The notes under the pieces were generated by a model. It was not told where the DNA came from, searched no databases, and saw only the letters and a list, made by a program, of their open reading frames with translations. The translations under genes were made by a program, and so were the position numbers. This document shows, piece after piece, positions 1,794 through 25,879 of a DNA stretch of 32,000 bases. The stretch's first letter is position 1. The number at the start of each line of letters is the position of its first letter. The stretch comes from an uncultured Erysipelotrichaceae bacterium (lineage in GTDB: Bacteria; Bacillota_I; Bacilli_A; Erysipelotrichales; Erysipelotrichaceae): the NCBI GenBank assembly GCA_942493105.1, contig OW818668.1, positions 960,001 through 992,000 on the forward strand. Direction: 5' to 3'.

Positions 1794-1980
1794 TGTTTCC
1801 AATATTAGTTGTTAATTCTGAATACAAATTCTGAGGAATTTCGTTTTCGAATTTCAAAATAATCGTAATAGGTCGGTTGCTTTTTTTATCATAATCAACC
1901 GTATTTGCTTTTCCCAAATATATAGGGTTCTGAAGTTCCATCAATTTTCTTGAACTTGCGGACAAAAATATGTAGTACAT
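1783..1980 (-). pseudogene. Out-of-frame 3' segment carrying the missing C-terminal end of the DUF3427 domain (not an independent gene)
   Basis: This frame reads ...NPIYLGKANTVDYDKKSNRPITIILKFENEIPQNLYSEL. That continues the ...GTSEPYIF end of the 909-aa ORF across the TATATATTT tract at ~1913-1927. Confidence 0.6.
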
Positions 1981-4624
1981 AGCCGTTATCTAAATTGAAT
2001 AAAATGTTTTTCCCTACTTTCGATTCTTGAGTTGTGTTATTTGGAGTCTGCCATTGAAGAGTGTTTTGGTTTAAAATTTTATCTTTATAGTTGATTGCTT
2101 CTCTAATGTCAGCATCTTTATTTAGGTCTATGAATAATAAATAGTTTTTCTCGTGTCTTAATAACCCTTGACCTCTAAAGGATGAGAACTTTTTCTCCAA
2201 ATTACAGAGTGGTGCTGTATCTGCCATTGTGTATGTTTCGTAAAGTTTGAAGAAAGGCACTACATACTCGAACTCGCCGAACTCACGTTGATATCTAAAA
2301 AGACCATATTTTATGACATCTTCAAAATACATTTTATTATAATCTGTGGTTACTTCACTCCATTGGTTTGACATTGAGACCATATTATTGTCAAGTACTA
2401 TAGGAGCTATGTATTTTCTGTACTTATCATCATCAAGAAATTTCCCCAATAGATTATTAATTGAGTGAGTTATTGAATTAATTGTAATCCCATTATACTT
2501 TGAAGAAATTTCAAGACTGATTTTCTCAAGTGATACAGTTCTATTTCGAAAGACCATCTCAAGAATAGTAAATTCTAAAGGTCTTCTTAGTGGTAAATTC
2601 GCTGAAAATTGTCTAATTAATTCTATGAAAAGAGGAGACCAATCGTTTTGATTCAATTTATCGCTTTCCATTCGAATCAAGAATTCAAGATAGCTCTTAG
2701 AGTATTTAATGAATCTAACAGGATCAGGACTTCCTTCATATAGCTCGTATTCCATTAAGAAGTATGGAATATTTTGTTTATTCATAGACTTGAAGCCGAA
2801 ATAGTTGTCTTTAAGGTATCTTAGTGATCTAAAATTCTCGTTTTGTAATTGGGAAATGATCTCATTTTTAGATATCTCATCCATTTGCACAAATGAATCT
2901 CCAGGAACCTCTCTGAACCCTTCTTTTACAGAGATCATTAGACTTTCTTTATCATAAAAGCGCTGTCCCTTAAGAGCAATAGCCATCATGAAGCTTTTTT
3001 TATAATTTCCAATAAAGTCGATGACCGTAACAAATTCTTTATCTGGTGTTTTTCTTAAACCACGTCCTAATTGTTGAATAAATATTATCGGAGAATTAGT
3101 TGGTCGTAGCATAAGTACCATATTGACTGATGGTATATCTATGCCCTCATTAAATACATCCCGCGTGAAAATAACTTCGACTGTTCCAACCTCATCTGAT
3201 TCCAATTCTTTTACATACTTTTCACGTGCTGGTACACTATCTGCGCCAGATAGAAAGACGCTTCTTATTCCTCGTTGATTAAAGGCGCTCATCATAAATT
3301 CAGCATGCTCAACACTTGCACAAAAACCCAAACATTTTAGTTTGTTACCTGTATGACCATACAATTTAATCTGTTTAACAATATAATCAACTCGGCTTTG
3401 AATGCTTAGTCTTCTTGTCAATTCGTCAATATCATTGTCGTCTAAATCAGAAAGTTTAATTCCATCAGCTTCTCGTATACCGAAATAATGAAACGGACAA
3501 ACTAATTCTTCCTCAATGGCTTCATATAGGCGAATTTCAAGAGCTATGTTATTTCTAAAAAAACTAAACAAACCATATCCATCAGTTCTTTCTGGTGTGG
3601 CAGTCATTCCCAGTATAAATTTGGGTTTAAAATATTCAATTACTTTTTGATATCCAGGAGCAAGAGCATGGTGTGTTTCATCAATCACCATATAATCAAA
3701 TTCTTGAGGACTAAAATCAAGATAATGTGTATACATGCTTTGAATTGTTGAAAACAAATATTTCGCATTTGTGTCCTTCTTAGTACCGCTTAATATTCCG
3801 CATTCAATTCCTGCACCTAAGACTCTTTTGTATGATTCAACAGCTTTATTAAGAATGTCCTCTCTATGAACCAAGAAGAGCACTCTATTTGGTTTAAATT
3901 GATGGATGTCAAAGGCAGACATATATGTTTTTCCGGTAGCTGTTGCAGCAATTACTAAACCACGATCTTCTCCTCGAGTTCTTAATTTGTGAAGATTAGC
4001 AATTGCTCTACTCTGCATTGAATTGGGTCTAACTGTTTCCTCAATAAACAGGAATTTCTCTTCTTGTTTATGTGCTTCCTTTAAAGTATTTATGAATGCT
4101 TCATATTGATCAAGGAATGCATTATCAATTGTCCTAGTCTTATTCCATAAATCGTTAAACTGACTATAAACATCGACAACAAATGGATGATCTTTTTTTG
4201 ATATTACCTTGACATTCCACTCGACGTTTTTTAGAAGGGCTTTCTCAGTAATATTGGATGAACCAATATAAAGAGTAATGTTTTCATCACTTTCGAAAAT
4301 ATATGCTTTTGTATGGAATCCACCAAATTCCTTCTGTAAATAGATCTTGGTTTCTATATTTGTAAATTCTTGAAGTTTTCGTAATGCCGCTGGGTCAGTA
4401 AAATTTAGGTAATCAGATGTAAGCACCTTTCCATATATATTTCTATCTTGGACATTCCGAATTTCACGTAGTAAAAGCTGTAAACCGCCAAAATTTATAA
4501 AAGCAACGCTGAAAATAAAACTTGAACAATTTTTAAGGCTAAAACAAATTTCGTCATACATACTAGAAATATCATTGTTTGAAATTAGTTCGATCCCGCT
4601 ATTGCTTAATGTAGGCTTTCCCAA
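1895..4624 (-). CDS. PLD-family nuclease / DExH superfamily-2 helicase / DUF3427 fusion protein; C-terminus apparently interrupted by a frameshift
   Basis: N-terminal single HKD-type motif HTKAYIF...GSSNIT. Helicase motifs AATATGKT (I), VIDETHHA (II), MTATPER (III) and QQLGRGLR (VI). The C-terminal region has the DUF3427-like pattern (LQWQTPNN...HIFVRKFKK...EPYIF) and ends prematurely at 1895. Confidence 0.85.
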   Translation of the reverse strand: MGKPTLSNSGIELISNNDISSMYDEICFSLKNCSSFIFSVAFINFGGLQLLLREIRNVQDRNIYGKVLTSDYLNFTDPAALRKLQEFTNIETKIYLQKEFGGFHTKAYIFESDENITLYIGSSNITEKALLKNVEWNVKVISKKDHPFVVDVYSQFNDLWNKTRTIDNAFLDQYEAFINTLKEAHKQEEKFLFIEETVRPNSMQSRAIANLHKLRTRGEDRGLVIAATATGKTYMSAFDIHQFKPNRVLFLVHREDILNKAVESYKRVLGAGIECGILSGTKKDTNAKYLFSTIQSMYTHYLDFSPQEFDYMVIDETHHALAPGYQKVIEYFKPKFILGMTATPERTDGYGLFSFFRNNIALEIRLYEAIEEELVCPFHYFGIREADGIKLSDLDDNDIDELTRRLSIQSRVDYIVKQIKLYGHTGNKLKCLGFCASVEHAEFMMSAFNQRGIRSVFLSGADSVPAREKYVKELESDEVGTVEVIFTRDVFNEGIDIPSVNMVLMLRPTNSPIIFIQQLGRGLRKTPDKEFVTVIDFIGNYKKSFMMAIALKGQRFYDKESLMISVKEGFREVPGDSFVQMDEISKNEIISQLQNENFRSLRYLKDNYFGFKSMNKQNIPYFLMEYELYEGSPDPVRFIKYSKSYLEFLIRMESDKLNQNDWSPLFIELIRQFSANLPLRRPLEFTILEMVFRNRTVSLEKISLEISSKYNGITINSITHSINNLLGKFLDDDKYRKYIAPIVLDNNMVSMSNQWSEVTTDYNKMYFEDVIKYGLFRYQREFGEFEYVVPFFKLYETYTMADTAPLCNLEKKFSSFRGQGLLRHEKNYLLFIDLNKDADIREAINYKDKILNQNTLQWQTPNNTTQESKVGKNILFNLDNGYVLHIFVRKFKKIDGTSEPYIFGKSKYG

Positions 4625-4857
4625 TTTGATTTCCTCGTAGTTTAATTATAACTTAATTGATCACATCATAATAAACAAATATATTATAGATCCTATTTTA
4701 AATCCTTTGGGAGTGTTAAGAATCATGCGTAAATTGATTTAGCTTTCTACGTGATCTTGAGTTTAAAAAGTTGACTTAATGTGTTTTCTGCTTTCGTGAA
4801 TCCTATGTGGATCCAGTTCAAAAATTTATGATACCAATCGATGAATAAACTGCAAAC

Positions 4858-5095
4858 GAAGTATTAGGACGAGGCTTCTTTTGGGAACTGCTCATATATT
4901 TTGGTTTGATGTTTCAGTTGTTTATGGAGACATCCAATCTAGTTGGTGGTGTACAGGTTTTCAGGATTGGCTGAGGGAAGTCGTAGAAGCAGGTCAAACT
5001 AAGATTGTCCTCTAATGCTTTGATCGCTTTAAGATAATGAGCTCGGTATTTGTTTTTGAAGGTCTCGAGATGAGATAAAGTAATTTCATTCGTTT
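4858..5095 (-). pseudogene. IS256-family (Mutator-type) transposase remnant, C-terminal part only, with in-frame stops
   Basis: The minus-strand translation is ...LSHLETFKNKYRAHYLKAIKALEDNLSLTCFYDFPQPILKTCTPPTRLDVSINN*NIKPKYMSSSQKKPRPN. It follows the IS256 Tnp pattern F..KY...YPK...SLE.N....FYDFP..I.K.IYTTN.IE..N...KR..K...FP.E. No intact ORF and no inverted repeats were identified. Confidence 0.6.
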
Positions 5096-5272
5096 CAGAT
5101 TGACAGATATCTTTGAGAACATCTCATCGATATTTCAACTTTGAAAAGTGCGCTCATTAATTCTATGTTAAAATTAGACATGGAAAATGCTATTTAAAAA
5201 GAAAATATGTGCAATATGTGCATAATAAACGATAAATAGTTTAAGACAAATGCATAATTTGTCTATTAAATA

Positions 5273-5301
5273 TTGACTTTACTAAGAACAAAATGTAATT
5301 T
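5273..5301 (+). promoter_or_regulatory. Possible sigma-A promoter of the four-gene operon
   Basis: TTGACT at 5273-5278, a 17-nt spacer ending in TG, then TAATTT at 5296-5301. The -10 element is weak. A small hairpin AGAAC/GTTCT (5308-5321) abuts the RBS GGGAGG. Confidence 0.3.
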
Positions 5302-5332
5302 AAGATTAGAACAATAGTTCTTGGGAGGAAAT

Positions 5333-5719
5333 ATGGGGTCAAGTGGTAGAGGCGAATTTGGAAATTATAAAGTAGATCGAAAAAGTGGTGGAGTCGGTAG
5401 TGGAAATAATGACACAACTATTGATATACAGTGTCCTGAATCAATTGAGAACATCCTACTTGAAGATATCAGTACTTGTGAATACTTCAAAACACTAAAT
5501 GGGTTGCCTTATGTAGGTCAAGATGTTTATATCAATTCTTTAATCATTGATGGAAGAATTGCTGTGGTCGATACAGCATCAACAAAAGTCATTGGGAATG
5601 TTCCGACTCGATATAATTACTTAATTGAGTGTATTTCTTCTATAAACTACATTGGTACAATTGAGATATCAGGTTTAATACCAATCCCGCATATAGTCGT
5701 AGAAATTCATGCAAAATAA
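5333..5719 (+). CDS. Small hypothetical protein with a Gly/Ser-rich disordered N-terminus (MGSSGRGEFGNY...GGVGSGNN) and a beta-rich C-terminal half; no recognisable family
   Basis: First gene of the operon. The strong RBS GGGAGG lies 4 nt upstream of the ATG at 5333; the track's TTG at 5321 is an alternative start, and both give Gly at position 2. Its stop overlaps the start of the next gene by 11 nt. Confidence 0.65.
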   Translation: MGSSGRGEFGNYKVDRKSGGVGSGNNDTTIDIQCPESIENILLEDISTCEYFKTLNGLPYVGQDVYINSLIIDGRIAVVDTASTKVIGNVPTRYNYLIECISSINYIGTIEISGLIPIPHIVVEIHAK

Positions 5720-7031
5720 AAAATGTCTTATAATTGGAGACGTTTTTATAGATGTTCATCTTGATGACATACAAGATGAATCTCCTATTATCCGACTTGG
5801 GGGGATTTTCCATGCTATACGGGCATTTTCAGCTATGGAGGAAAATTTTGGACATCTATATTTTGCACCAAGTTACTTAGTAGATGATATTGAACATTTC
5901 TCGAAGGAACTATCATCACAATATTCGAAATCAATTGGGGAGGTAATTAACTCACCGAATTTGATGTTAGTAAGTGACTCAAAGGAAGCTTCTTTACAGG
6001 GTTATCTCGATTTGCTAAAGTCGAAGAAAGAGATTAGTTATTCAGATAAAATTGAATTGAATATCCAAGAGTATTGCCCTACAGACGTTCTACTGTTTCC
6101 GGGGAAATATGATGTTAAAAGAATTCTTCAGTTGTTGGCAAAGCAAGATTGTAAAATACATATCGATATCCAGTATGATTTTGATCTTGATGATTTTTTT
6201 GAAGGACAAGAAATCGAAACTGTTTTTGTTTCCACATCGTCAAAGCATATACAGAGAATTGAAAATAAATCAACAATGGAGCTTATAGAAAAACTTTCCC
6301 ACTATTCCATAAAAACATTAGTTATAAAAGAAAATCGTGGAGGATCATTGATTTATGATTATGAAACTCAAAAAATATATAATATACCCGCATTTATCTC
6401 ATCGACAATACACTCAGTTGGTGTAGGAGATGTTTATAATGTAGTATATTTATGTATGTCGAAAGTGTATTCAACAATAAATGCTTCAAAATGTGCATCT
6501 TATGCGGCTTCTTTATACGCTCAGACATATGACTACATTGGTTTTAAGAATAGAATGAAATTCCTTTTGGGGAATGTAGATAAGATCTCAAGTCTAAATG
6601 GAGTTCGAGTATCTTGGGACTCAAGACCGACTATTAATGTTTATATTGCTGCGCCAGATTTCCCAACAGTTGATACAAGAATTATTGATGAAGTCCAATC
6701 TTCTTTAAAGTATCACAATTTTAGCCCACGATTACCAATAAGGGAGAATGGATTGTATCTTGACAGTATGTCAAAAAAGGAAGAGTTGACACTTTTCTAC
6801 AAGGATATTGAGCTACTAAGCAGATGCGATTTGTTAATTGCAATTATTCTGATTAATGATCCTGGAACATATGTTGAGCTTGGTATTTTTAAACAAATGG
6901 GGAAACCTACAATCGTTTATGATCCTTTTGGAATATGTCAAAACATGTTTGCAAAGAACACAGCCGACTATTTTTGTACAAATCTTTCTGAGGTTGTAGA
7001 TGCAACATTTGTTGCCATGAGAGGAACATGA
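5709..7031 (+). CDS. Fusion protein: N-terminal PfkB/ribokinase-family kinase domain + C-terminal nucleoside 2-deoxyribosyltransferase-like (NDT/PF05014-like) domain
   Basis: PfkB signatures: IIGDVFIDVHL...RLGGIFHAIRAFSAM at the N-terminus and IHSVGVGDVYNVVYL (DTxGAGDxF-type). The NDT-like half has VYIAAPDFP and INDPGTYVELGIFKQMGKPTIVYDP (D.GT..E.G....GKP motif with Asp and Glu retained). Confidence 0.75.
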   Translation: MQNKKCLIIGDVFIDVHLDDIQDESPIIRLGGIFHAIRAFSAMEENFGHLYFAPSYLVDDIEHFSKELSSQYSKSIGEVINSPNLMLVSDSKEASLQGYLDLLKSKKEISYSDKIELNIQEYCPTDVLLFPGKYDVKRILQLLAKQDCKIHIDIQYDFDLDDFFEGQEIETVFVSTSSKHIQRIENKSTMELIEKLSHYSIKTLVIKENRGGSLIYDYETQKIYNIPAFISSTIHSVGVGDVYNVVYLCMSKVYSTINASKCASYAASLYAQTYDYIGFKNRMKFLLGNVDKISSLNGVRVSWDSRPTINVYIAAPDFPTVDTRIIDEVQSSLKYHNFSPRLPIRENGLYLDSMSKKEELTLFYKDIELLSRCDLLIAIILINDPGTYVELGIFKQMGKPTIVYDPFGICQNMFAKNTADYFCTNLSEVVDATFVAMRGT

Positions 7032-7032
7032 A

Positions 7033-7659
7033 ATGAAGTATGATGCATTAATCTTGGCTTCTGGTGGGATGGATTCTACAGTCCTTTTGTATCAATTGAG
7101 AAATGAAATGAAAAATCCAATTATTTTATTCCTTGATTATGGACAACACTGTAGAGATACTGAGTATAATACCCTAAAATTAGTTATTCCTGAAGAGTTT
7201 AAAGAGAACATTAGGCTAGTTAATATTAAAGATATCTACAGAGAATCTAGCTCAGTTATGATTCACGAAACTGATTTGTGGAAAAATGATGTAAAAGCTG
7301 ATGACATGTATCTTCCATATAGGAATCTGCTATTTCTTTCTATAGGATCCGCATATGCTCAATCTTTAGGAATAAAAAATGTATATTCTGCTTTTATAAA
7401 TAGCAATCATGCTAAAGAAATTGATTGTTCTGTGGAGTTTTTTTCGCGTCTTGAGGAATTGCTTTCAGAATACGGCTCAGTGAAAATAATAACACCATTT
7501 CGCGAACTTACAAAGACAGATGTTGCTAGATTAGGACTCGAACTTAATGCTCCTATTTCGTTAACATATTCGTGTCAAATTAATTCCAAAAATCCATGTG
7601 GAGCATGTCCAAACTGCGTTGATAGGCTACAGGCAATAAAAAACCTGATTCAAGATTGA
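7033..7659 (+). CDS. QueC-like PP-loop ATPase (7-cyano-7-deazaguanine synthase family), orphan copy
   Basis: N-terminal PP-loop ILASGGMDSTV. C-terminal Zn-cysteine cluster SCQINSKNPCGACPNCVDRL as in QueC. The ~208-aa length fits the family. It starts 1 nt after the upstream stop. Confidence 0.8.
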   Translation: MKYDALILASGGMDSTVLLYQLRNEMKNPIILFLDYGQHCRDTEYNTLKLVIPEEFKENIRLVNIKDIYRESSSVMIHETDLWKNDVKADDMYLPYRNLLFLSIGSAYAQSLGIKNVYSAFINSNHAKEIDCSVEFFSRLEELLSEYGSVKIITPFRELTKTDVARLGLELNAPISLTYSCQINSKNPCGACPNCVDRLQAIKNLIQD

Positions 7660-7670
7660 AGGATGATTTT

Positions 7671-8315
7671 ATGGATGCAATCAAATATCGAAGCGAGATT
7701 GACAAATTAGTTCGGTTTATTGGGATGCAGAATTTTTGTTTTGAGCAATTTGATGATAGATGCGTATATGAACATATGAGCGCTGTCATTGTAGATTCGA
7801 TATTACAAGCAGGAATGAATTACGATAGAATTGTTCTTCCTAGAGTTCGGATGCTAATAGAGAAATATGATGATTTCAGAACTACTGAGGATTTTTTGGT
7901 ACTTATTCAAGCAAAACCACTAGGCCAATTAATTAGTTGGCGTAATGAAAAGAAACTAGAAAGAATAAGAAAATTGACTTGGTACTTCTATGAACGTAGG
8001 ATAAATAAAATCTCTGATCTTCAGGAATGGTTTCGGACTGAAGAAAACATAATGAATCTTAGATTAATTAATGGTATTGGTCCAAAAACTGTCGACTACA
8101 TGAAAAAGCTTGTTGGAATAGATACATTTGCTGTTGATCGACATTTGTTTAAATTTCTGGAATTGTCCGGAGTGTGTACAACTGACTATGTGGAAGCAAC
8201 TATAATATATGAAAACGCTTCACTAGAGCTACATATTGATAAATGGACACTTGACAAAGCTATATGGGACCTAATGTCGGCCAATGGATTATTGCACTTA
8301 AGGTTAATCATTTAA
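7671..8315 (+). CDS. HhH-GPD superfamily DNA glycosylase-like protein (EndoIII/OGG2-like)
   Basis: Helix-hairpin-helix LINGIGPKTVDYMKKLVGIDTFAVDRHLF parallels Nth LPGVGRKTANVV...IAVDTHIF. The Lys and the Asp ~17 residues later are retained. The ATG at 7671 has the RBS AAGGA; the track's TTG at 7656 overlaps the queC-like stop by 4 nt and is an alternative start. Confidence 0.65.
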   Translation: MDAIKYRSEIDKLVRFIGMQNFCFEQFDDRCVYEHMSAVIVDSILQAGMNYDRIVLPRVRMLIEKYDDFRTTEDFLVLIQAKPLGQLISWRNEKKLERIRKLTWYFYERRINKISDLQEWFRTEENIMNLRLINGIGPKTVDYMKKLVGIDTFAVDRHLFKFLELSGVCTTDYVEATIIYENASLELHIDKWTLDKAIWDLMSANGLLHLRLII

Positions 8316-8957
8316 TGATTGAGGCATCCAATATATGCTTCACCGACGAATTATGAAGTAGGTAACAATACTGTATATTTCAATGAAACAAATTACTTTT
8401 AAAAATGGACATCCCTGGTATATTATGACAAACCCGAATTCGCTGAGCGCTTTATTACAAACCTATTGCAATAGGGTGAATGATTCAATGGATTTATGTA
8501 TTAATCAAAATTCTTCCTAATAGCGTACCTTTAGGTGATTCTATAATCCTGGTATTTTGTTCAAAATGTTTCATGTGTTTCTATTGTAAAGTTAAAAAAT
8601 CTTGATCACTAAGTATCTAATAGACGAAATCATGATTTGGAGTATTTTGAGATAGTAACAGTACTTCGGTAAAATGTCATGTTGGTATACCTTCACCAGA
8701 ATTTTAGCAATACTCTGACTATACAAAATGTTAATGGCAGATAAAGTATAGAAGGTAATTGCGGATTTTTGAGAGGTTTGAAGGCTGGTTTAAACGAGGG
8801 AAAGAAGAAACCTAATCGCATCTTCCTCTTTACCATGATTTCATTCAATAAATGCGAATATTTGAATTATCATTTCATAGTCAATACACTTTAAACCATT
8901 AGAAAACTGGCTGATTTAGAGGGTTCATGTACTTTGGTGAGGTTATGAGATATAAAA

Positions 8958-8988
8958 ATATCTTCTTGCATATTTATGAAGAAGATAT
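8958..8988 (-). terminator. Hairpin downstream of the GntR/EIIB unit (weak intrinsic terminator)
   Basis: ATATCTTCTT (8958-8967) pairs with AAGAAGATAT (8979-8988). On the minus strand the stem is followed by TTTTAT. Confidence 0.35.
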
Positions 8989-9112
8989 ATTGAGAACTTT
9001 TCAATATTTTATGCTGTAATTTCCGGCATTTTCATTTTGTATGGTCCGAGATTTCTAAAATCAATTAATCTACAATTAAAAATATATTGTGTTGAAATTT
9101 TTGACCTTCAAC

Positions 9113-9829
9113 TTAATTATCATCTATATTTCTAGAAATGGATATAGCCATTCGATCTGTTCTATAGTAATTGATGGAAATAAAAATGGGATCATGTTTT
9201 CGTGTAAAAAATGTCATTGTAGATTTGATCAGAGGAAAACCAACGGAAACATCTAGGTTATTTGCTATGGCAGCATCAGCATTTAAAGCAATCAATTCTT
9301 GCTTTCCATATGCTAAGTTGATATTCTTCGATTTAAGGTGTTCAACAATGGAACCCTCAGCAATCTCTTTTGTGATTGATCCGCATATTTTGGTTACCCA
9401 ATATGATTCTTCATACAACACTTCTAAATTATTAACATATCTAATGCGATTGATCACCCATACCTCATCTTCATCGCTTATACCTAAATAGTTTTGAGTA
9501 ATCAATGGGCATTTTCGTTTTTCAATAGACAAAACTTTACTGCTGGGCACATTACCAAGCATTTTGGTGCTTTCAGTAAAACTGACAACTTTTCCCACCC
9601 TTTTTTCAAGCATCCTTGTTTTAACAAAGGTCCCTTTGCCTCTTTCTCGAGTTAAGTAACCTTTTTCTTCCAGATACTTCAAAGCATGTCTTATTGTTAC
9701 TCGAGAGACACCAAATATGTCAGCTAACTCATCTTCTGAAGGGATTTTTGATCCAGCAGGATACTCTTCGAATTGAATCTTCTCATATATCTTATCGGAC
9801 ACAAATTGATACTTTAGTTCGTTTGCCAT
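9113..9829 (-). CDS. GntR-family transcriptional regulator, HutC subfamily (wHTH + UTRA effector domain)
   Basis: N-terminal LPSEDELADIFGVSRVTIRHALKYLEEKGYL, typical of GntR wHTH domains. The ~238-aa length and C-terminal pattern are typical of UTRA. Confidence 0.85.
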   Translation of the reverse strand: MANELKYQFVSDKIYEKIQFEEYPAGSKIPSEDELADIFGVSRVTIRHALKYLEEKGYLTRERGKGTFVKTRMLEKRVGKVVSFTESTKMLGNVPSSKVLSIEKRKCPLITQNYLGISDEDEVWVINRIRYVNNLEVLYEESYWVTKICGSITKEIAEGSIVEHLKSKNINLAYGKQELIALNADAAIANNLDVSVGFPLIKSTMTFFTRKHDPIFISINYYRTDRMAISISRNIDDN

Positions 9830-24320: not shown

Positions 24321-24914
24321 TTAAAAAAAGACAACCTCGTTATACTGAATAGTATAAGGAGGTTTTTTAATGTGTTTACTAAGACCCATTTCACCTTTAT
24401 TTTGTCGATCAGACAACTCACAATATGCTTTTGCCTTAAATGGGATAAGGTGGTATTCATCCAGGATGGATATGCCATCAACAATGTTCTTACCTTCAAG
24501 TAGAAAATTGTAGTAGTCATCGCTTAAGAGAATTGCAGATAAACTCGAAATATCATCTGCGATATGAAGTGGTAACAAGTGACCCCTATGACCAATATCA
24601 AAATTTAGGGATGACCTTGAAAACAACTCGATCATATAAGGATATTGAGTATTTTCAGGATTTTCGAATCTATAGAAATGTGCTTTTTCTTGACCAAATG
24701 TTGTTTTGTATTGCCCCTTCTTTATGAATTCCCAAAATTTCTTCCCAAATTCTTCACTGATGTGTTCAACAATCAACACCATGTCAATATCTTTTGTTGC
24801 TCTAAAGTCACCGCCTGCTTTCTCAAAAAGAATAGTGCATGCAGTGCCTCCAATGACTACATAACAATGCTCGAAACCAAAGAAATGTTCTCTAAATAGT
24901 TCAAGCCCCCTCAT
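24321..24914 (-). CDS. Nucleotidyltransferase-fold protein, AbiEii/AbiGii-toxin-like; possibly C-terminally truncated
   Basis: VVIGGTACTILFEKAGGDFRATKDIDMVL matches the GGTA...R.T.DID NTase signature. A 4-nt overlap links it to the upstream wHTH gene. The final ~12 codons are encoded by the terminator hairpin. Confidence 0.5.
   Translation of the reverse strand: MRGLELFREHFFGFEHCYVVIGGTACTILFEKAGGDFRATKDIDMVLIVEHISEEFGKKFWEFIKKGQYKTTFGQEKAHFYRFENPENTQYPYMIELFSRSSLNFDIGHRGHLLPLHIADDISSLSAILLSDDYYNFLLEGKNIVDGISILDEYHLIPFKAKAYCELSDRQNKGEMGLSKHIKKPPYTIQYNEVVFF
24323..24368. terminator. Bidirectional rho-independent terminator
   Basis: The stem AACCTC-g-TTATACT (24333-24346) / AGTATAA-g-GAGGTT (24351-24364) has the loop GAAT. 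An A7 run lies on the left and a T6 run on the right. It overlaps the last codons of the minus-strand NTase ORF. Confidence 0.7.
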
Positions 24915-25879
24915 TGTTTCCTTTCCAACAGTGATTGTATTTCTATGTCAATTCTTGGATCATCTAAATTTTTGAGTTCTGCATAAATTGATCCGATATC
25001 TACGCTTTGGTTTTTAGAAAACAGCTTAGGATCATAAGTCCAAATTTCAAAAGTAATTCTTGTTTTGATATGAGTGTCATATGCATCGTCTTTTTCACTA
25101 AATAGGATTCTTTTGTCTATCTTTTTGGCTGATTTCTTACTTATCGCATACGTTATGTTTTGTGGATTATTCAACATGGATAACTCAGAAAGAGCAGATT
25201 CATTTGAAACAAAGTAATCTATACCAACAGGTAGTGTCTTCAAAGAGATTGTCTTTTGAATTGGACTGACTAAAAACTCTTTTCCGATTTGCCAATAGGA
25301 TTCTTTCTCTACTCTCGTATAGTGCTTCCTTGTCGCATTTCCTTGAACCTTAATCAGGTTTAGAATGATGAGACTATCTATGGCGCGATAAATTGTGATC
25401 TTTGCCAGATCCAATTTCTTGGTTAGATCATTTACATCGATTTTTTCAGTTTCTTGATAGAAGATTGCCAAATAAACACATTGAGTAGATGGTGTAAAAG
25501 TTTTGATCGTTGGTTTGTTAAGAGCGACTTTTTCACTAAAGTTTAGATAAATAAAAGGCAGATATATCTGCATATATGGCACAACGAATGCAATTCTTTT
25601 CTCAACAAGGCCTCTTCTTTGATAAGGTCTGAGTTCATTAAACAATAGGATAAATTTACTGTCGAAATTTTCACTTAGACTTGTTAAGTGCTTAAGGATT
25701 TTTTCTGTCAGAATTTGTTTTCCATGATATTCCATAAAGAGACAATTGTGCCCATGCAAAACACCTTCATAAAACTCATATTCATTTCTGATCAGTAATG
25801 GGATTTTGTTGAATCCTTCGAATTTTATCAAGCTGATATCTTCACCAAACACATCTTTCAAATACTGTTCAACGCGCAC
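24911..25879 (-). CDS. Winged-helix DNA-binding protein, putative AbiEi-like antitoxin/regulator partner
   Basis: Internal wHTH-like segment LDLAKITIYRAIDSLIILNLIKVQG. GTG start with the RBS AGGTGG. Gene order (regulator first, NTase second, overlapping) matches type IV TA AbiE loci. The family call is tentative. Confidence 0.45.
   Translation of the reverse strand: MRVEQYLKDVFGEDISLIKFEGFNKIPLLIRNEYEFYEGVLHGHNCLFMEYHGKQILTEKILKHLTSLSENFDSKFILLFNELRPYQRRGLVEKRIAFVVPYMQIYLPFIYLNFSEKVALNKPTIKTFTPSTQCVYLAIFYQETEKIDVNDLTKKLDLAKITIYRAIDSLIILNLIKVQGNATRKHYTRVEKESYWQIGKEFLVSPIQKTISLKTLPVGIDYFVSNESALSELSMLNNPQNITYAISKKSAKKIDKRILFSEKDDAYDTHIKTRITFEIWTYDPKLFSKNQSVDIGSIYAELKNLDDPRIDIEIQSLLERKQ

Follow-up and report, generated by a model that had tools for sequence, protein, structure and literature searches.

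A mobile four-gene cassette as a candidate third architecture for QueC-type N-terminal nucleobase conjugation

A compact four-gene cassette occupies positions 5321–8315 of a 32,000-nucleotide stretch of DNA from an uncultured Erysipelotrichaceae bacterium (assembly GCA_942493105.1, contig OW818668.1, positions 960,001 to 992,000; this whole stretch is called the window below). Its four open reading frames (ORFs), all on the + strand, encode a small protein, a fusion of a PfkB-type kinase with a nucleoside 2-deoxyribosyltransferase (NDT), a QueC-like enzyme, and a protein resembling DNA glycosylases. Judged from motifs and predicted folds, the best reading of this gene set is a third QueC-type N-terminal nucleobase-conjugation architecture, in which an NDT-kinase would take the place of a TGT-like enzyme and a HIRAN-like protein would be the substrate. 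The best explanation of the cassette as a whole is a mobile module, probably anti-phage, that couples conjugation of this type to the building of a nucleotide, and we give this complete account about an even chance of being right. QueC-type protein deazaguanylation was found in 2025 in the type IV cyclic oligonucleotide-based antiphage signaling system (CBASS) (10.1101/2025.04.06.647259) and was extended in 2026 to QatABCD (PMC13279940). N-terminal nucleobase conjugation is so far known from two other anti-phage systems only, and never with the partner enzymes encoded here.

The cassette consists of the following features:

5322..5327, + strand: Shine-Dalgarno sequence GGGAGG of the small gene, 5 nt before ATG 5333 (direct sequence reading)
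5333..5719, + strand: small protein gene, 128 amino acids (aa), proposed conjugation substrate
5709..6620, + strand: PfkB/ribokinase-fold kinase domain of the fusion protein, approximately residues 1–300
6624..7031, + strand: NDT domain of the fusion protein, approximately residues 306–440
7033..7659, + strand: predicted QueC-family ATP-dependent ligase, Cap9-like, 208 aa
7671..8315, + strand: Ogg2/Cap11-like helix-hairpin-helix (HhH) DNA glycosylase/apurinic-apyrimidinic (AP) lyase-type protein, 214 aa

Conservation of the four-gene arrangement

One genome per GTDB species was searched with an alignment of the fusion protein, which gave 69 loci spanning the Bacillota, Bacteroidota, Planctomycetota, Acidobacteriota, Chloroflexota, Actinomycetes, TM6, Treponema, and a few Pseudomonadota. 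In 57 of the 69 loci, which come from about ten phyla, the full set of four genes keeps one order and one strand, an arrangement far beyond chance. An earlier sequence-only reading of this DNA had treated the four genes as one system that should recur in other genomes, and it does. The small gene lies upstream of the fusion gene in 68 loci, and the median gaps at the three junctions are -8, -11, and -4 nt. The glycosylase gene is missing from 11 loci, ten of them in Bacillales and the eleventh (L054) in a Bacteroidaceae metagenome-assembled genome (MAG), and one further locus ends at a contig edge. In six loci, all from Bacillales, and also on megaplasmids of B. cereus and B. mycoides, the kinase-NDT and QueC-like proteins form one ORF of ~655 aa; the same triple fusion occurs among database proteins of Bacillus cereus and Lysinibacillus. 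The four genes were also found in Proteus mirabilis and on a Neotabrizicola plasmid, including a small protein that begins MGSTGSGSF, and the Proteus cassette had no DNA-level match in 5,426 E. coli genomes. Beyond the cassette itself, the loci share almost nothing.

The small protein and its N-terminus

The proposed substrate is the product of the first gene. Its N-terminus carries the MGSSGRGEFGNY motif (codons 5333..5368, + strand), with the residues M-G-S-S-G-R-G-E-F-G-N-Y, followed by a disordered Gly/Ser linker at approximately residues 13–33. The family consensus at this end is M-G-S-[ST]-G-x-G-x-[FL]-x-D-Y. Among 240 motif-bearing database members, the motif begins at residue 1 in 222, and its composition is nearly fixed (G2 100%, S/T3 100%, G5 99%, G7 93%, F/L9 98%, Y12 98%). 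In the sequences from 55 loci, M1 and G2 are invariant, and S3, G5, G7, and Y12 are conserved at 90% or above. Across 272 database members, residue 2 is Gly in at least 241 (241 motif-aligned members, plus most of 18 that were unassigned). Members with another residue at this position include P0308, P0311, P0314, P0340, P0348, P0359, P0369, and P0374.

The family is larger than a single-sequence search, which returned only three relatives, would indicate. A profile search retrieved 566 relatives at 90% clustering, or 313 clusters at 50% identity, 252 of which have E-values up to 1e-10. All are stand-alone "hypothetical proteins" of 92–202 aa and are never fused to another domain. No sequence match was found for the small protein in Pfam (E up to 0.1), NCBIfam, PADLOC, PHROG, or the PDB.

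AlphaFold models were built on database homologues of the cassette proteins. The AlphaFold2 model of the small protein (46 sequences) has a predicted local distance difference test score (pLDDT) of 80.7, with residues 14–30 below 50 and a domain at residues 35–128 above 90. In Foldseek, this alpha/beta domain (approximately residues 35–128) matched the HIRAN domains of lp_0118 (3k2y), DNA-bound human HLTF, and Rad5 with probability 1.0, template-modeling (TM) scores of 0.53–0.65, ~100 aligned columns, and E-values of about 3e-3; viral proteins annotated as HIRAN matched as well. The small protein thus has a HIRAN fold by structure comparison and falls outside the HIRAN family as Pfam defines it by sequence. 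HIRAN domains bind DNA 3' ends and act at stalled forks and DNA ends.

The N-terminus resembles those of the known or proposed conjugation substrates. QatB starts with MGTS and the type IV CBASS CD-NTase with MGGS, and Gly2 is the target of the QueC-family enzyme (PMC13279940). In QatB, the MGTS sits on a disordered tail of 30–90 residues, and the substitution G2D abolishes defense (PMC13279940); in the type IV CBASS CD-NTase, the target Gly2 likewise lies on a disordered tail (PMC13279940; 10.1101/2025.04.06.647259). The small protein has the same layout that marks a partner of a Cap9-type enzyme, namely Met-Gly conserved right at the N-terminus and borne on a flexible tail. Conjugation to this protein is proposed because it is the operon partner of a QueC-family enzyme, has a long flexible N-terminus, and keeps an invariant Gly2. 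After removal of Met, Gly2 would be the acceptor.

The QueC-like protein

The protein encoded at 7033–7659 belongs to the QueC family by sequence (PF06508, 124 bits; PADLOC CBASS "QueC" model, 92 bits), and it falls below the cut-offs for canonical QueC (TIGR00364, 103.1 vs 150.3 bits; NF008317, 41.2 vs 378 bits) and for QatC (NF041925, 21.6 vs 280 bits; PADLOC QatC, E = 0.006). When a profile of its family was compared with the PDB, Cap9 (9nto, 9e-17) ranked ahead of QueC (2pg3, 6e-14). The invariant residues are S10-G-G-x-D14-S15-T16, Y36-x-Q38-(x)5-E44, R97-N98, E129-I-D131-C132, P155-F-(x)4-K161, and C181-Q-(x)6-C189-xx-C192-xx-C195-x-D197. The published Cap9 signature comprises Y/FxQ(x)5E, RN, DCxxxF, PF(x)4K, and C[E/Q](x)6CxxCxxCxD, as against YxQxHxxE, YPDC, and C(x)8CxxCxxC for canonical QueC (Libby et al. 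2026, PMC13329287). The QueC-like protein matches all Cap9 motif spacings, with Q for E after the first Cys, and at 208 aa it falls within the 190–210 aa of the minimal fold typical of Cap9. It departs from the canonical signature (YGQ(x)5E, E129-I-D-C, and C(x)7CxxCxxC instead) and keeps SGGxDS and RN.

In Cap9, D117 hydrogen-bonds the conjugated base, NDG, and Y115 is the base-stacking Tyr (10.1101/2025.04.06.647259). The equivalent of D117 is kept as D131, and the position of Y115, the Tyr of YPDC, is taken by an invariant Glu, E129. Members of the family share at least 51% identity with one another and at most 31% with annotated queC, and the Proteus record that carries the cassette also holds a second QueC-like locus. 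The earlier view that this enzyme is not a canonical QueC is therefore upheld by its score below the TIGR00364 cut-off, by its Cap9-like spacing, and by the second QueC homologue in Proteus. No queD, queE, queF, or folE was found among the 25 commonest Pfam families of 120 immediate neighbors (65 non-redundant loci) or among the scanned window genes. The link of the cassette to 7-deazapurines is made by homology alone.

The PfkB kinase-NDT fusion protein

The fusion protein has 440 aa, and its AlphaFold2 model is of high quality (pLDDT 92.7, predicted TM score 0.91). The kinase domain resembles ribokinase, ketohexokinase, and nucleoside kinase in Foldseek (E about 1e-13, TMt 0.6–0.7), and its invariant residues are G31-G32, K207-E208, G211-G212, and H235-S-V-G-V-G-D241, so that fold and the GG and GxGD motifs together place it with the PfkB/ribokinase enzymes. 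At the sequence level, PfkB matches in NCBIfam and the PDB were weak, and PF00294 did not match the window fusion at E up to 0.1; this Pfam match is precomputed for some homologues.

The NDT domain matched PF05014 above the gathering threshold (1.2e-11, 45.2 bits vs a cut-off of 28.8) and 6evs in the PDB (1.4e-8). Invariant in 24 sequences are Y312, A314, P316-D317-F318, D384, G386-T387, E390, and G392, including Y312 and E390, which we take to be the catalytic Tyr/Glu pair of NDT enzymes. NDT is a base-exchange enzyme that works via a covalent (deoxy)ribosyl-Glu intermediate, so that the NDT domain can be regarded as a putative functional counterpart of TGT-like Cap10. For the fusion, the QueC-like protein, and the glycosylase, Pfam, AlphaFold/Foldseek, and profile matches agree with the domain assignments that had been made from the sequence.

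The glycosylase and the optional partner enzymes

A profile of the family of the fourth protein (7671–8315) matched 9o00 (3e-7), 3fhf (1.6e-6), 3fhg, and 3knt in the PDB, with E-values up to 1.6e-5; these are Ogg2-type 8-oxoguanine glycosylase/AP lyases, and EndoIII matched more weakly. Two invariant stretches, G135-x-G137-x-K139 and D156-R-H158, supply counterparts of the HhH Lys (K139) and the catalytic Asp (D156). The PADLOC CBASS "OGG" (Cap11) model matched 23 of 45 family members (best 4e-8), and no Pfam family (including HhH-GPD) or PHROG was matched. By the two catalytic residues and the profile similarity, the protein groups with the bifunctional Ogg2-type HhH glycosylases and Cap11.

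Most of the loci that lack this gene have another enzyme. A MutT-like NUDIX gene lies directly upstream of the cassette in 8 of the 11 glycosylase-less loci and on the B. cereus plasmid pC1L1, on the same strand and ~80 nt before the small gene, whereas such a gene is nearby in only 2 of the 57 glycosylase-bearing loci. The NUDIX protein belongs to PADLOC PDC-S07 (best 1e-49), and in NCBIfam it comes closest to (d)NTP pyrophosphatases and MutT. This contrast is suggestive and not statistical proof, because the loci are phylogenetically clustered. In addition, a dGTP triphosphohydrolase (dGTPase) gene adjoins the cassette in 7–8 loci (NF002205, 453.6 vs 439 bits; PADLOC dGTPase, 3e-93). It might act as an accessory, supplying the NDT with deoxyguanosine for instance, or simply be a defense gene at the same site. 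The optional partners (OGG-like, MutT-like, and dGTPase) are all enzymes of guanine deoxynucleotides. The dGTPase loci are L005, L007, L021, L023, L027, L031, L042, and L058 (e.g., L007:3560-4978), mostly on the same strand as the cassette; in L007, L021, and L027, a 240-aa PolyA_pol-head nucleotidyltransferase follows the dGTPase.

The window itself has a NUDIX gene at 1386–1793 whose product is of the same PADLOC family, PDC-S07, as the Bacillales cassette NUDIX. It was rejected as a cassette component: it abuts a DUF2075/SLFN-g3 helicase gene, a gene on the opposite strand lies between it and the cassette, and its product shares 32% identity over 62 residues with the Bacillales cassette NUDIX.

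Proposed mechanism and its alternatives

A pathway that would employ all of these proteins can be proposed as follows: (i) after removal of the initiator Met, the QueC-like ligase, judged by homology and motifs, would use ATP to activate a carboxylated 7-deazaguanine-type base, most likely host-made 7-carboxy-7-deazaguanine (CDG), and link it as an amide to Gly2 of the small protein on its ~30-residue flexible tail; (ii) the N9 of the tethered base being free, the NDT domain could add (deoxy)ribose at this position; (iii) the fused PfkB kinase could then phosphorylate the sugar, which by the same domain logic would give a protein-tethered 7-deaza-(d)G nucleotide; (iv) the HIRAN-like C-terminal domain, going by its fold, may take the adduct to DNA 3' ends; and (v) the Ogg2/Cap11-like glycosylase-lyase would remove or limit the adduct, a task that may fall to the MutT-like NUDIX in Bacillales, as the gene swap suggests. 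We consider it likely, from motifs and homology, that Gly2 receives a 7-deazaguanine-type acid from the QueC-like enzyme. Ribosylation of the tethered base by the NDT domain and its phosphorylation by the PfkB kinase, which domain logic and the fusion pattern point to, are more tentative, and here we would sooner expect to be wrong than right. An anti-phage role, to which association with defense genes points, is a view toward which we lean.

The sequence-only reading had offered attachment of a deazapurine to the small protein as the first of its three hypotheses, and the invariant N-terminal M-G-S-x-G on a disordered tail, as in the established or putative substrates of Cap9 and QatC, speaks for it. 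Its second hypothesis, the synthesis of a 7-deazapurine nucleoside or nucleotide, is best seen as the next step of the first, carried out on a protein-bound base.

Several observations weigh against this account. Residue 2 is Glu, Asp, or Cys (M-E-S, M-D-S, or M-C-S) in 13 of 272 small-protein homologues (~5%), and one M-E-S member with a real ATG GAA start lies inside a complete four-gene operon (L077:1636-2037), which therefore speaks against a strict requirement for Gly2. The HIRAN likeness is purely structural, with no sequence-level match in Pfam or the PDB. The acid that is activated may differ from CDG, given that Glu (E129) stands at the position of the stacking Tyr, and no queD, queE, or folE was found near the cassette in the neighbor survey described above. 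The usual substrates of NDT enzymes are free nucleosides. An obvious effector (nuclease, pore, NADase, or similar) is missing from the cassette, the system is absent from PADLOC v2, and its role in defense is by association only. Finally, no homologue of the fusion was found in 50,697 phage genome records, a result that counts against this account and also against a module that serves the element carrying it.

The only comment in print on the QueC/PfkB-NDT pair is that of purine salvage (Libby et al. 2026, PMC13329287), which runs counter to our proposal and favors an alternative in small-molecule metabolism. Here the QueC-like and fusion proteins would supply, by synthesis or salvage, a free (deoxy)nucleoside or nucleotide with a 7-deazapurine or purine base, for example as a signal, a toxic analogue, or a salvage product, and the small protein and the glycosylase would be accessory or regulatory. 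Every catalytic domain of the cassette is a fold of nucleoside or nucleotide metabolism, the neighboring dGTPase and NUDIX are nucleotide enzymes as well, and E129 in place of Tyr suggests an altered small-molecule pocket. However, this alternative leaves two conserved features unexplained, namely the N-terminal MGSxG on the disordered tail of a co-transcribed stand-alone protein and a DNA glycosylase/lyase with a conserved Schiff-base Lys. Nor does the setting fit: transporter, que, or regulatory genes are not found nearby, the distribution is patchy and mobile, in defense islands and prophages and not in metabolic operons, and the QueC-like protein coexists with another QueC homologue. We therefore regard a purely metabolic role as unlikely.

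Alternatively, the enzymes could act on DNA and not on a protein-bound nucleotide. This could take the form of a Dpd-like system, in which modification of DNA is paired with cutting of foreign DNA, unmodified or modified, by the glycosylase-lyase. In a variant, base exchange would insert the deazaguanylated small protein into DNA or cross-link it there, with its HIRAN-like domain locating the sites. The HIRAN-like fold, which in bona fide HIRAN domains binds DNA 3' ends, and the glycosylase, which keeps the bifunctional Lys and the Asp of DNA-acting enzymes, are in keeping with such a role, and Dpd systems do place 7-deazaguanines in DNA. The authors of the type IV CBASS study also consider "integration into nucleic acid chains" (10.1101/2025.04.06.647259). 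On the other side, neither the window nor the conserved flanks encode a DNA transglycosylase of the TGT/DpdA type, and the sugar kinase would be left without a role. Base exchange in polymeric DNA is not known for the NDT family. At least in the variant of the cassette where a MutT-like NUDIX stands in for the glycosylase, the swap argues for a substrate at the nucleotide level. Taken together, a system directed at DNA appears improbable.

The proposed conjugation to Gly2 could nevertheless lead to DNA by another route. The tethered 7-deaza-dG nucleotide might be joined to DNA 3' ends or built into them, a polymerase being one candidate for this step, and invading DNA would thereby acquire a DNA-protein adduct that blocks replication. 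Polymerases accept 7-deaza-dGTP with bulky groups at C7. The OGG-like glycosylase or the Bacillales NUDIX would then protect or reset the host, much as OGG and MutT do for 8-oxoguanine. We think this extension probably goes too far.

Gene boundaries and sequence signals

Re-reading the sequence reproduced the layout described earlier, with four ORFs on one strand, an 11-nt overlap of the small gene and the fusion gene (ATGcaaaaTAA at 5709–5719), and a single base between the fusion stop (TGA, 7029–7031) and the ATG of the QueC-like gene at 7033, which has GAGGAA upstream. The start of the small gene had to be moved by 12 nt, from TTG 5321 to ATG 5333, because GGGAGG lies 5 nt upstream of the ATG, all homologues begin with MGS, and a public genome holds a 100%-identical protein of 128 aa. 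The QueC-like gene ends with TGA at 7657–7659, and of the two starts suggested for the glycosylase gene, ATG 7671 is the most likely, since AAGGA lies upstream and since, at the loci with 90% and 65% identity, the genes were called at 214 and 215 aa with starts 12 nt past the QueC stop.

The AT-rich flanks of the cassette hold no credible ORF (4625–5320, ~700 bp; 8316–9112, ~800 bp), and the GC content is 0.31–0.35 across 1–10.5 kb vs 0.40–0.43 across 13–24 kb of the window, both as first described. In contrast, the IS256-type transposase remnant that had been reported in the upstream flank was not substantiated: a minus-strand frame at ~4800–5060 looks vaguely like an IS256 C-terminus by eye, and this best-looking frame had no match in Pfam and no tblastn match in 72,556 plasmids. 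An Rfam E-value scan of 4500–9300 gave no riboswitch or other known RNA, no tRNA was found in the window, and direct or inverted repeats flanking the cassette were short, chance-level matches without a mark of insertion. A single weak terminator-like site lies at 9011–9029. Promoter-like hits numbered 36, vs a shuffle mean of 24.7 (standard deviation 5.1), and none could be assigned to the operon.

Genomic context and mobility

The left neighbors of the cassette in the window are as follows:

3-1385, + strand: DUF2075/SLFN-g3 helicase; its stop ends at 1385 and abuts the NUDIX gene
1386-1793, + strand: NUDIX protein, PADLOC PDC-S07 at 8.6e-41; ATG at 1386
1895-4624, - strand: protein with PLD, ResIII-helicase, and DUF3427 domains, 909 aa; PADLOC mREase_IV at 512 bits

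The 909-aa gene, which resembles type IV restriction endonucleases (REases), is probably an independent defense gene between the NUDIX pair and the cassette. These Pfam and PADLOC matches in the window, together with defense genes around relatives of the cassette, agree with the defense island that the sequence-only reading had perceived. The prediction that no defense call would span the cassette was likewise borne out in PADLOC v2, whose models cover neither the fusion nor the small protein.

The 120 immediate neighbors of the 65 non-redundant loci were surveyed with PADLOC models (E up to 1e-5). PDC-S07 was found nine times, dGTPase seven times, and ZorD-like proteins twice; single cases were a type I REase, HmaA/DrmD/DrmA-type helicases, BrxH, ThsB, PifA, HEC-01A, PDC-S08, WYL, and a type IV REase. 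Pfam neighbors include Mrr, KAP NTPase, DUF2357, integrases, and helix-turn-helix regulators. In five Bacteroidota loci (L028, L032, L043, L045, and L065; e.g., L028:4807-6622), an AAA_15/AAA_21 ATPase and a PIN_3 protein are encoded directly upstream and on the strand of the cassette, the ATPase being NsnB-like in PADLOC (2e-36).

Around the closest relatives of the window fusion, phage and defense genes are mixed. The 90%-identical relative (L073:1-8947, a metagenome contig) is bordered on one side by genes for phage replication, ParB-methylase, and Ltp; on its other side, TIR (PDC-S35), DrmD-like SNF2, and type III methylase and REase genes form a block. The 65%-identical relative (L075:868-9446, an Erysipelotrichaceae MAG) comes immediately after the tape-measure and tail genes of a prophage. 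A Lachnospiraceae island follows fusA-tuf and has an integrase at its far end, the Proteus cassette follows rpoD and is accompanied by an integrase fragment and insertion sequence (IS) elements, and the cassette also occurs on megaplasmids. Because its flanks vary, megaplasmids carry it, and prophage genes and integrases adjoin it, we read the cassette as a mobile unit that lands in defense islands and prophage accessory regions. It may travel as a prophage accessory module, the fusion being unmatched in the phage records noted above.

Such surroundings raise the question of whom the module serves. Instead of defending the host against phages, it could benefit the prophage, integrative and conjugative element, or plasmid that carries it, for example through counter-defense, by protecting DNA ends, by priming replication, or by making damage tolerable, as the adjacent prophage tail genes, phage replication and Ltp genes, integrases, and IS elements, its carriage on megaplasmids, and the action of HIRAN domains at stalled forks and DNA ends might suggest. 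We find this very unlikely given the empty search of phage genomes, the many chromosomal loci with classical defense genes on both sides, and the fact that both characterized QueC-type conjugation systems are defense systems.

Elsewhere in the window, a second low-GC patch (0.32–0.36) at ~24–26.5 kb contains two overlapping minus-strand ORFs, 24321-24914 (197 aa) and 24911-25879 (322 aa). Neither had a PADLOC match, and the longer one had no Pfam match.

Significance

The cassette joins a predicted ligase of the type known from type IV CBASS and QatABCD, and a candidate N-terminal Gly substrate, to enzyme types that glycosylate at N9 and phosphorylate sugars, and it adds either of two classical enzymes that sanitize modified guanine. 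Being compact and widespread, these four genes offer a handle on the fate of the conjugated base, on its free N9, and on the role of the OGG-like protein. They also provide a first functional lead for more than 300 clusters of "hypothetical" small proteins. If the improbable incorporation at DNA 3' ends were true, the cassette would represent a new class of post-translational modification, from protein N-terminus to nucleotide, and a new principle of immune effectors.

Comparison with known systems

Full-text literature searches gave no name for the four-gene set, and in PADLOC-DB v2.0.0 the fusion and the small protein were unmatched, the CBASS QueC and OGG accessory models being the only ones to match. 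The initial claim of an undescribed system thus holds, within these searches, for the four genes as a set and has to be given up for one pair among them. In the PF06508 "cluster 4" of Libby et al. (2026, PMC13329287), a PF00294-PF05014 neighbor was found in 237 of 266 members (89%), in 234 of them within the operon, and the pair was interpreted as purine salvage. This is almost certainly the same gene pair as in the cassette, and the cassette resembles cluster 4 in its enterobacterial and alphaproteobacterial hosts, where the same four genes occur. The MGS small protein and the glycosylase are unmentioned in that study, and no protein substrate was proposed (PMC13329287); both proteins escape a Pfam-based neighborhood analysis because neither has a Pfam model, so that this approach missed two of the four conserved genes. 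Two details differ as well. The printed cluster-4 motifs, CH(x)5CxxCxGCxK and YGQ(x)6E (PMC13329287), match no cassette sequence that we examined, in which the motifs read CQ(x)6CGxCPNCV[DE]R and YGQ(x)5E (alignment A4; L070:7320-7940, L072:8311-8949). In addition, a nitroreductase is listed in the operon of ~20% of cluster-4 members (Table S2 of Libby et al.) and is not among the recurrent flanking families here.

With canonical QueC, the QueC-like protein shares the PP-loop SGGxDS, the zinc Cys cluster, and the overall fold. A role in queuosine synthesis was nevertheless rejected: the protein scores below the cut-offs, its motif spacing is off, Glu replaces the Tyr, and queD, queE, and queF are not nearby. 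Identity with Dpd was rejected for want of a TGT/DpdA-type transglycosylase in the window or the conserved flanks. The optional "eraser", an OGG-type glycosylase or a MutT-type NUDIX, recalls the GO system, in which MutT serves as 8-oxo-dGTPase and OGG/MutM excises 8-oxoguanine, so that these two enzyme types guard DNA against modified guanine; this is an analogy only, as the substrate in the cassette would be a C7-substituted 7-deazaguanine and not 8-oxoguanine.

QatABCD is likewise a four-gene operon of defense islands with a QueC-family enzyme and an MG[ST] partner on a disordered tail. However, QatC has ~400 aa, with extension domains and remodeled base-binding residues, whereas the QueC-like protein has 208 aa, and QatB is helical, in contrast to the HIRAN-like small protein. 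Identity with QatABCD was rejected on the NF041925 score given above (21.6 vs 280 bits) and because the operon has neither QatA (KAP ATPase) nor the TatD nuclease QatD.

The nearest parallel is type IV CBASS. There, Cap9 uses ATP to activate CDG and joins it through an amide bond to the CD-NTase at Gly2 (Wassarman et al. 2025, 10.1101/2025.04.06.647259), TGT-like Cap10 docks on the N-terminus so modified, negative regulation has been proposed as the role of OGG-like Cap11, whose deletion was toxic, and NDG leaves N9 free for "subsequent addition of ribose" (10.1101/2025.04.06.647259). Both systems have (i) a QueC-family ligase of ~200 aa with Cap9-type spacing, (ii) a partner that starts with M-G-[GS]-S on a flexible tail, and (iii) a base-exchange-type enzyme in the operon together with a frequent OGG-like glycosylase. 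They are not the same system, since the cassette and its conserved flanks encode no CD-NTase, no Cap effector, and no TGT-like Cap10. The proposed substrate is instead a 128-aa HIRAN-like protein, and the stacking Tyr of the ligase has become Glu. The glycosylase, found in about one-third of type IV CBASS operons, is nearly always part of the cassette and is exchanged for a NUDIX in Bacillales, and the base-exchange enzyme is an NDT-PfkB fusion where type IV CBASS has a TGT.

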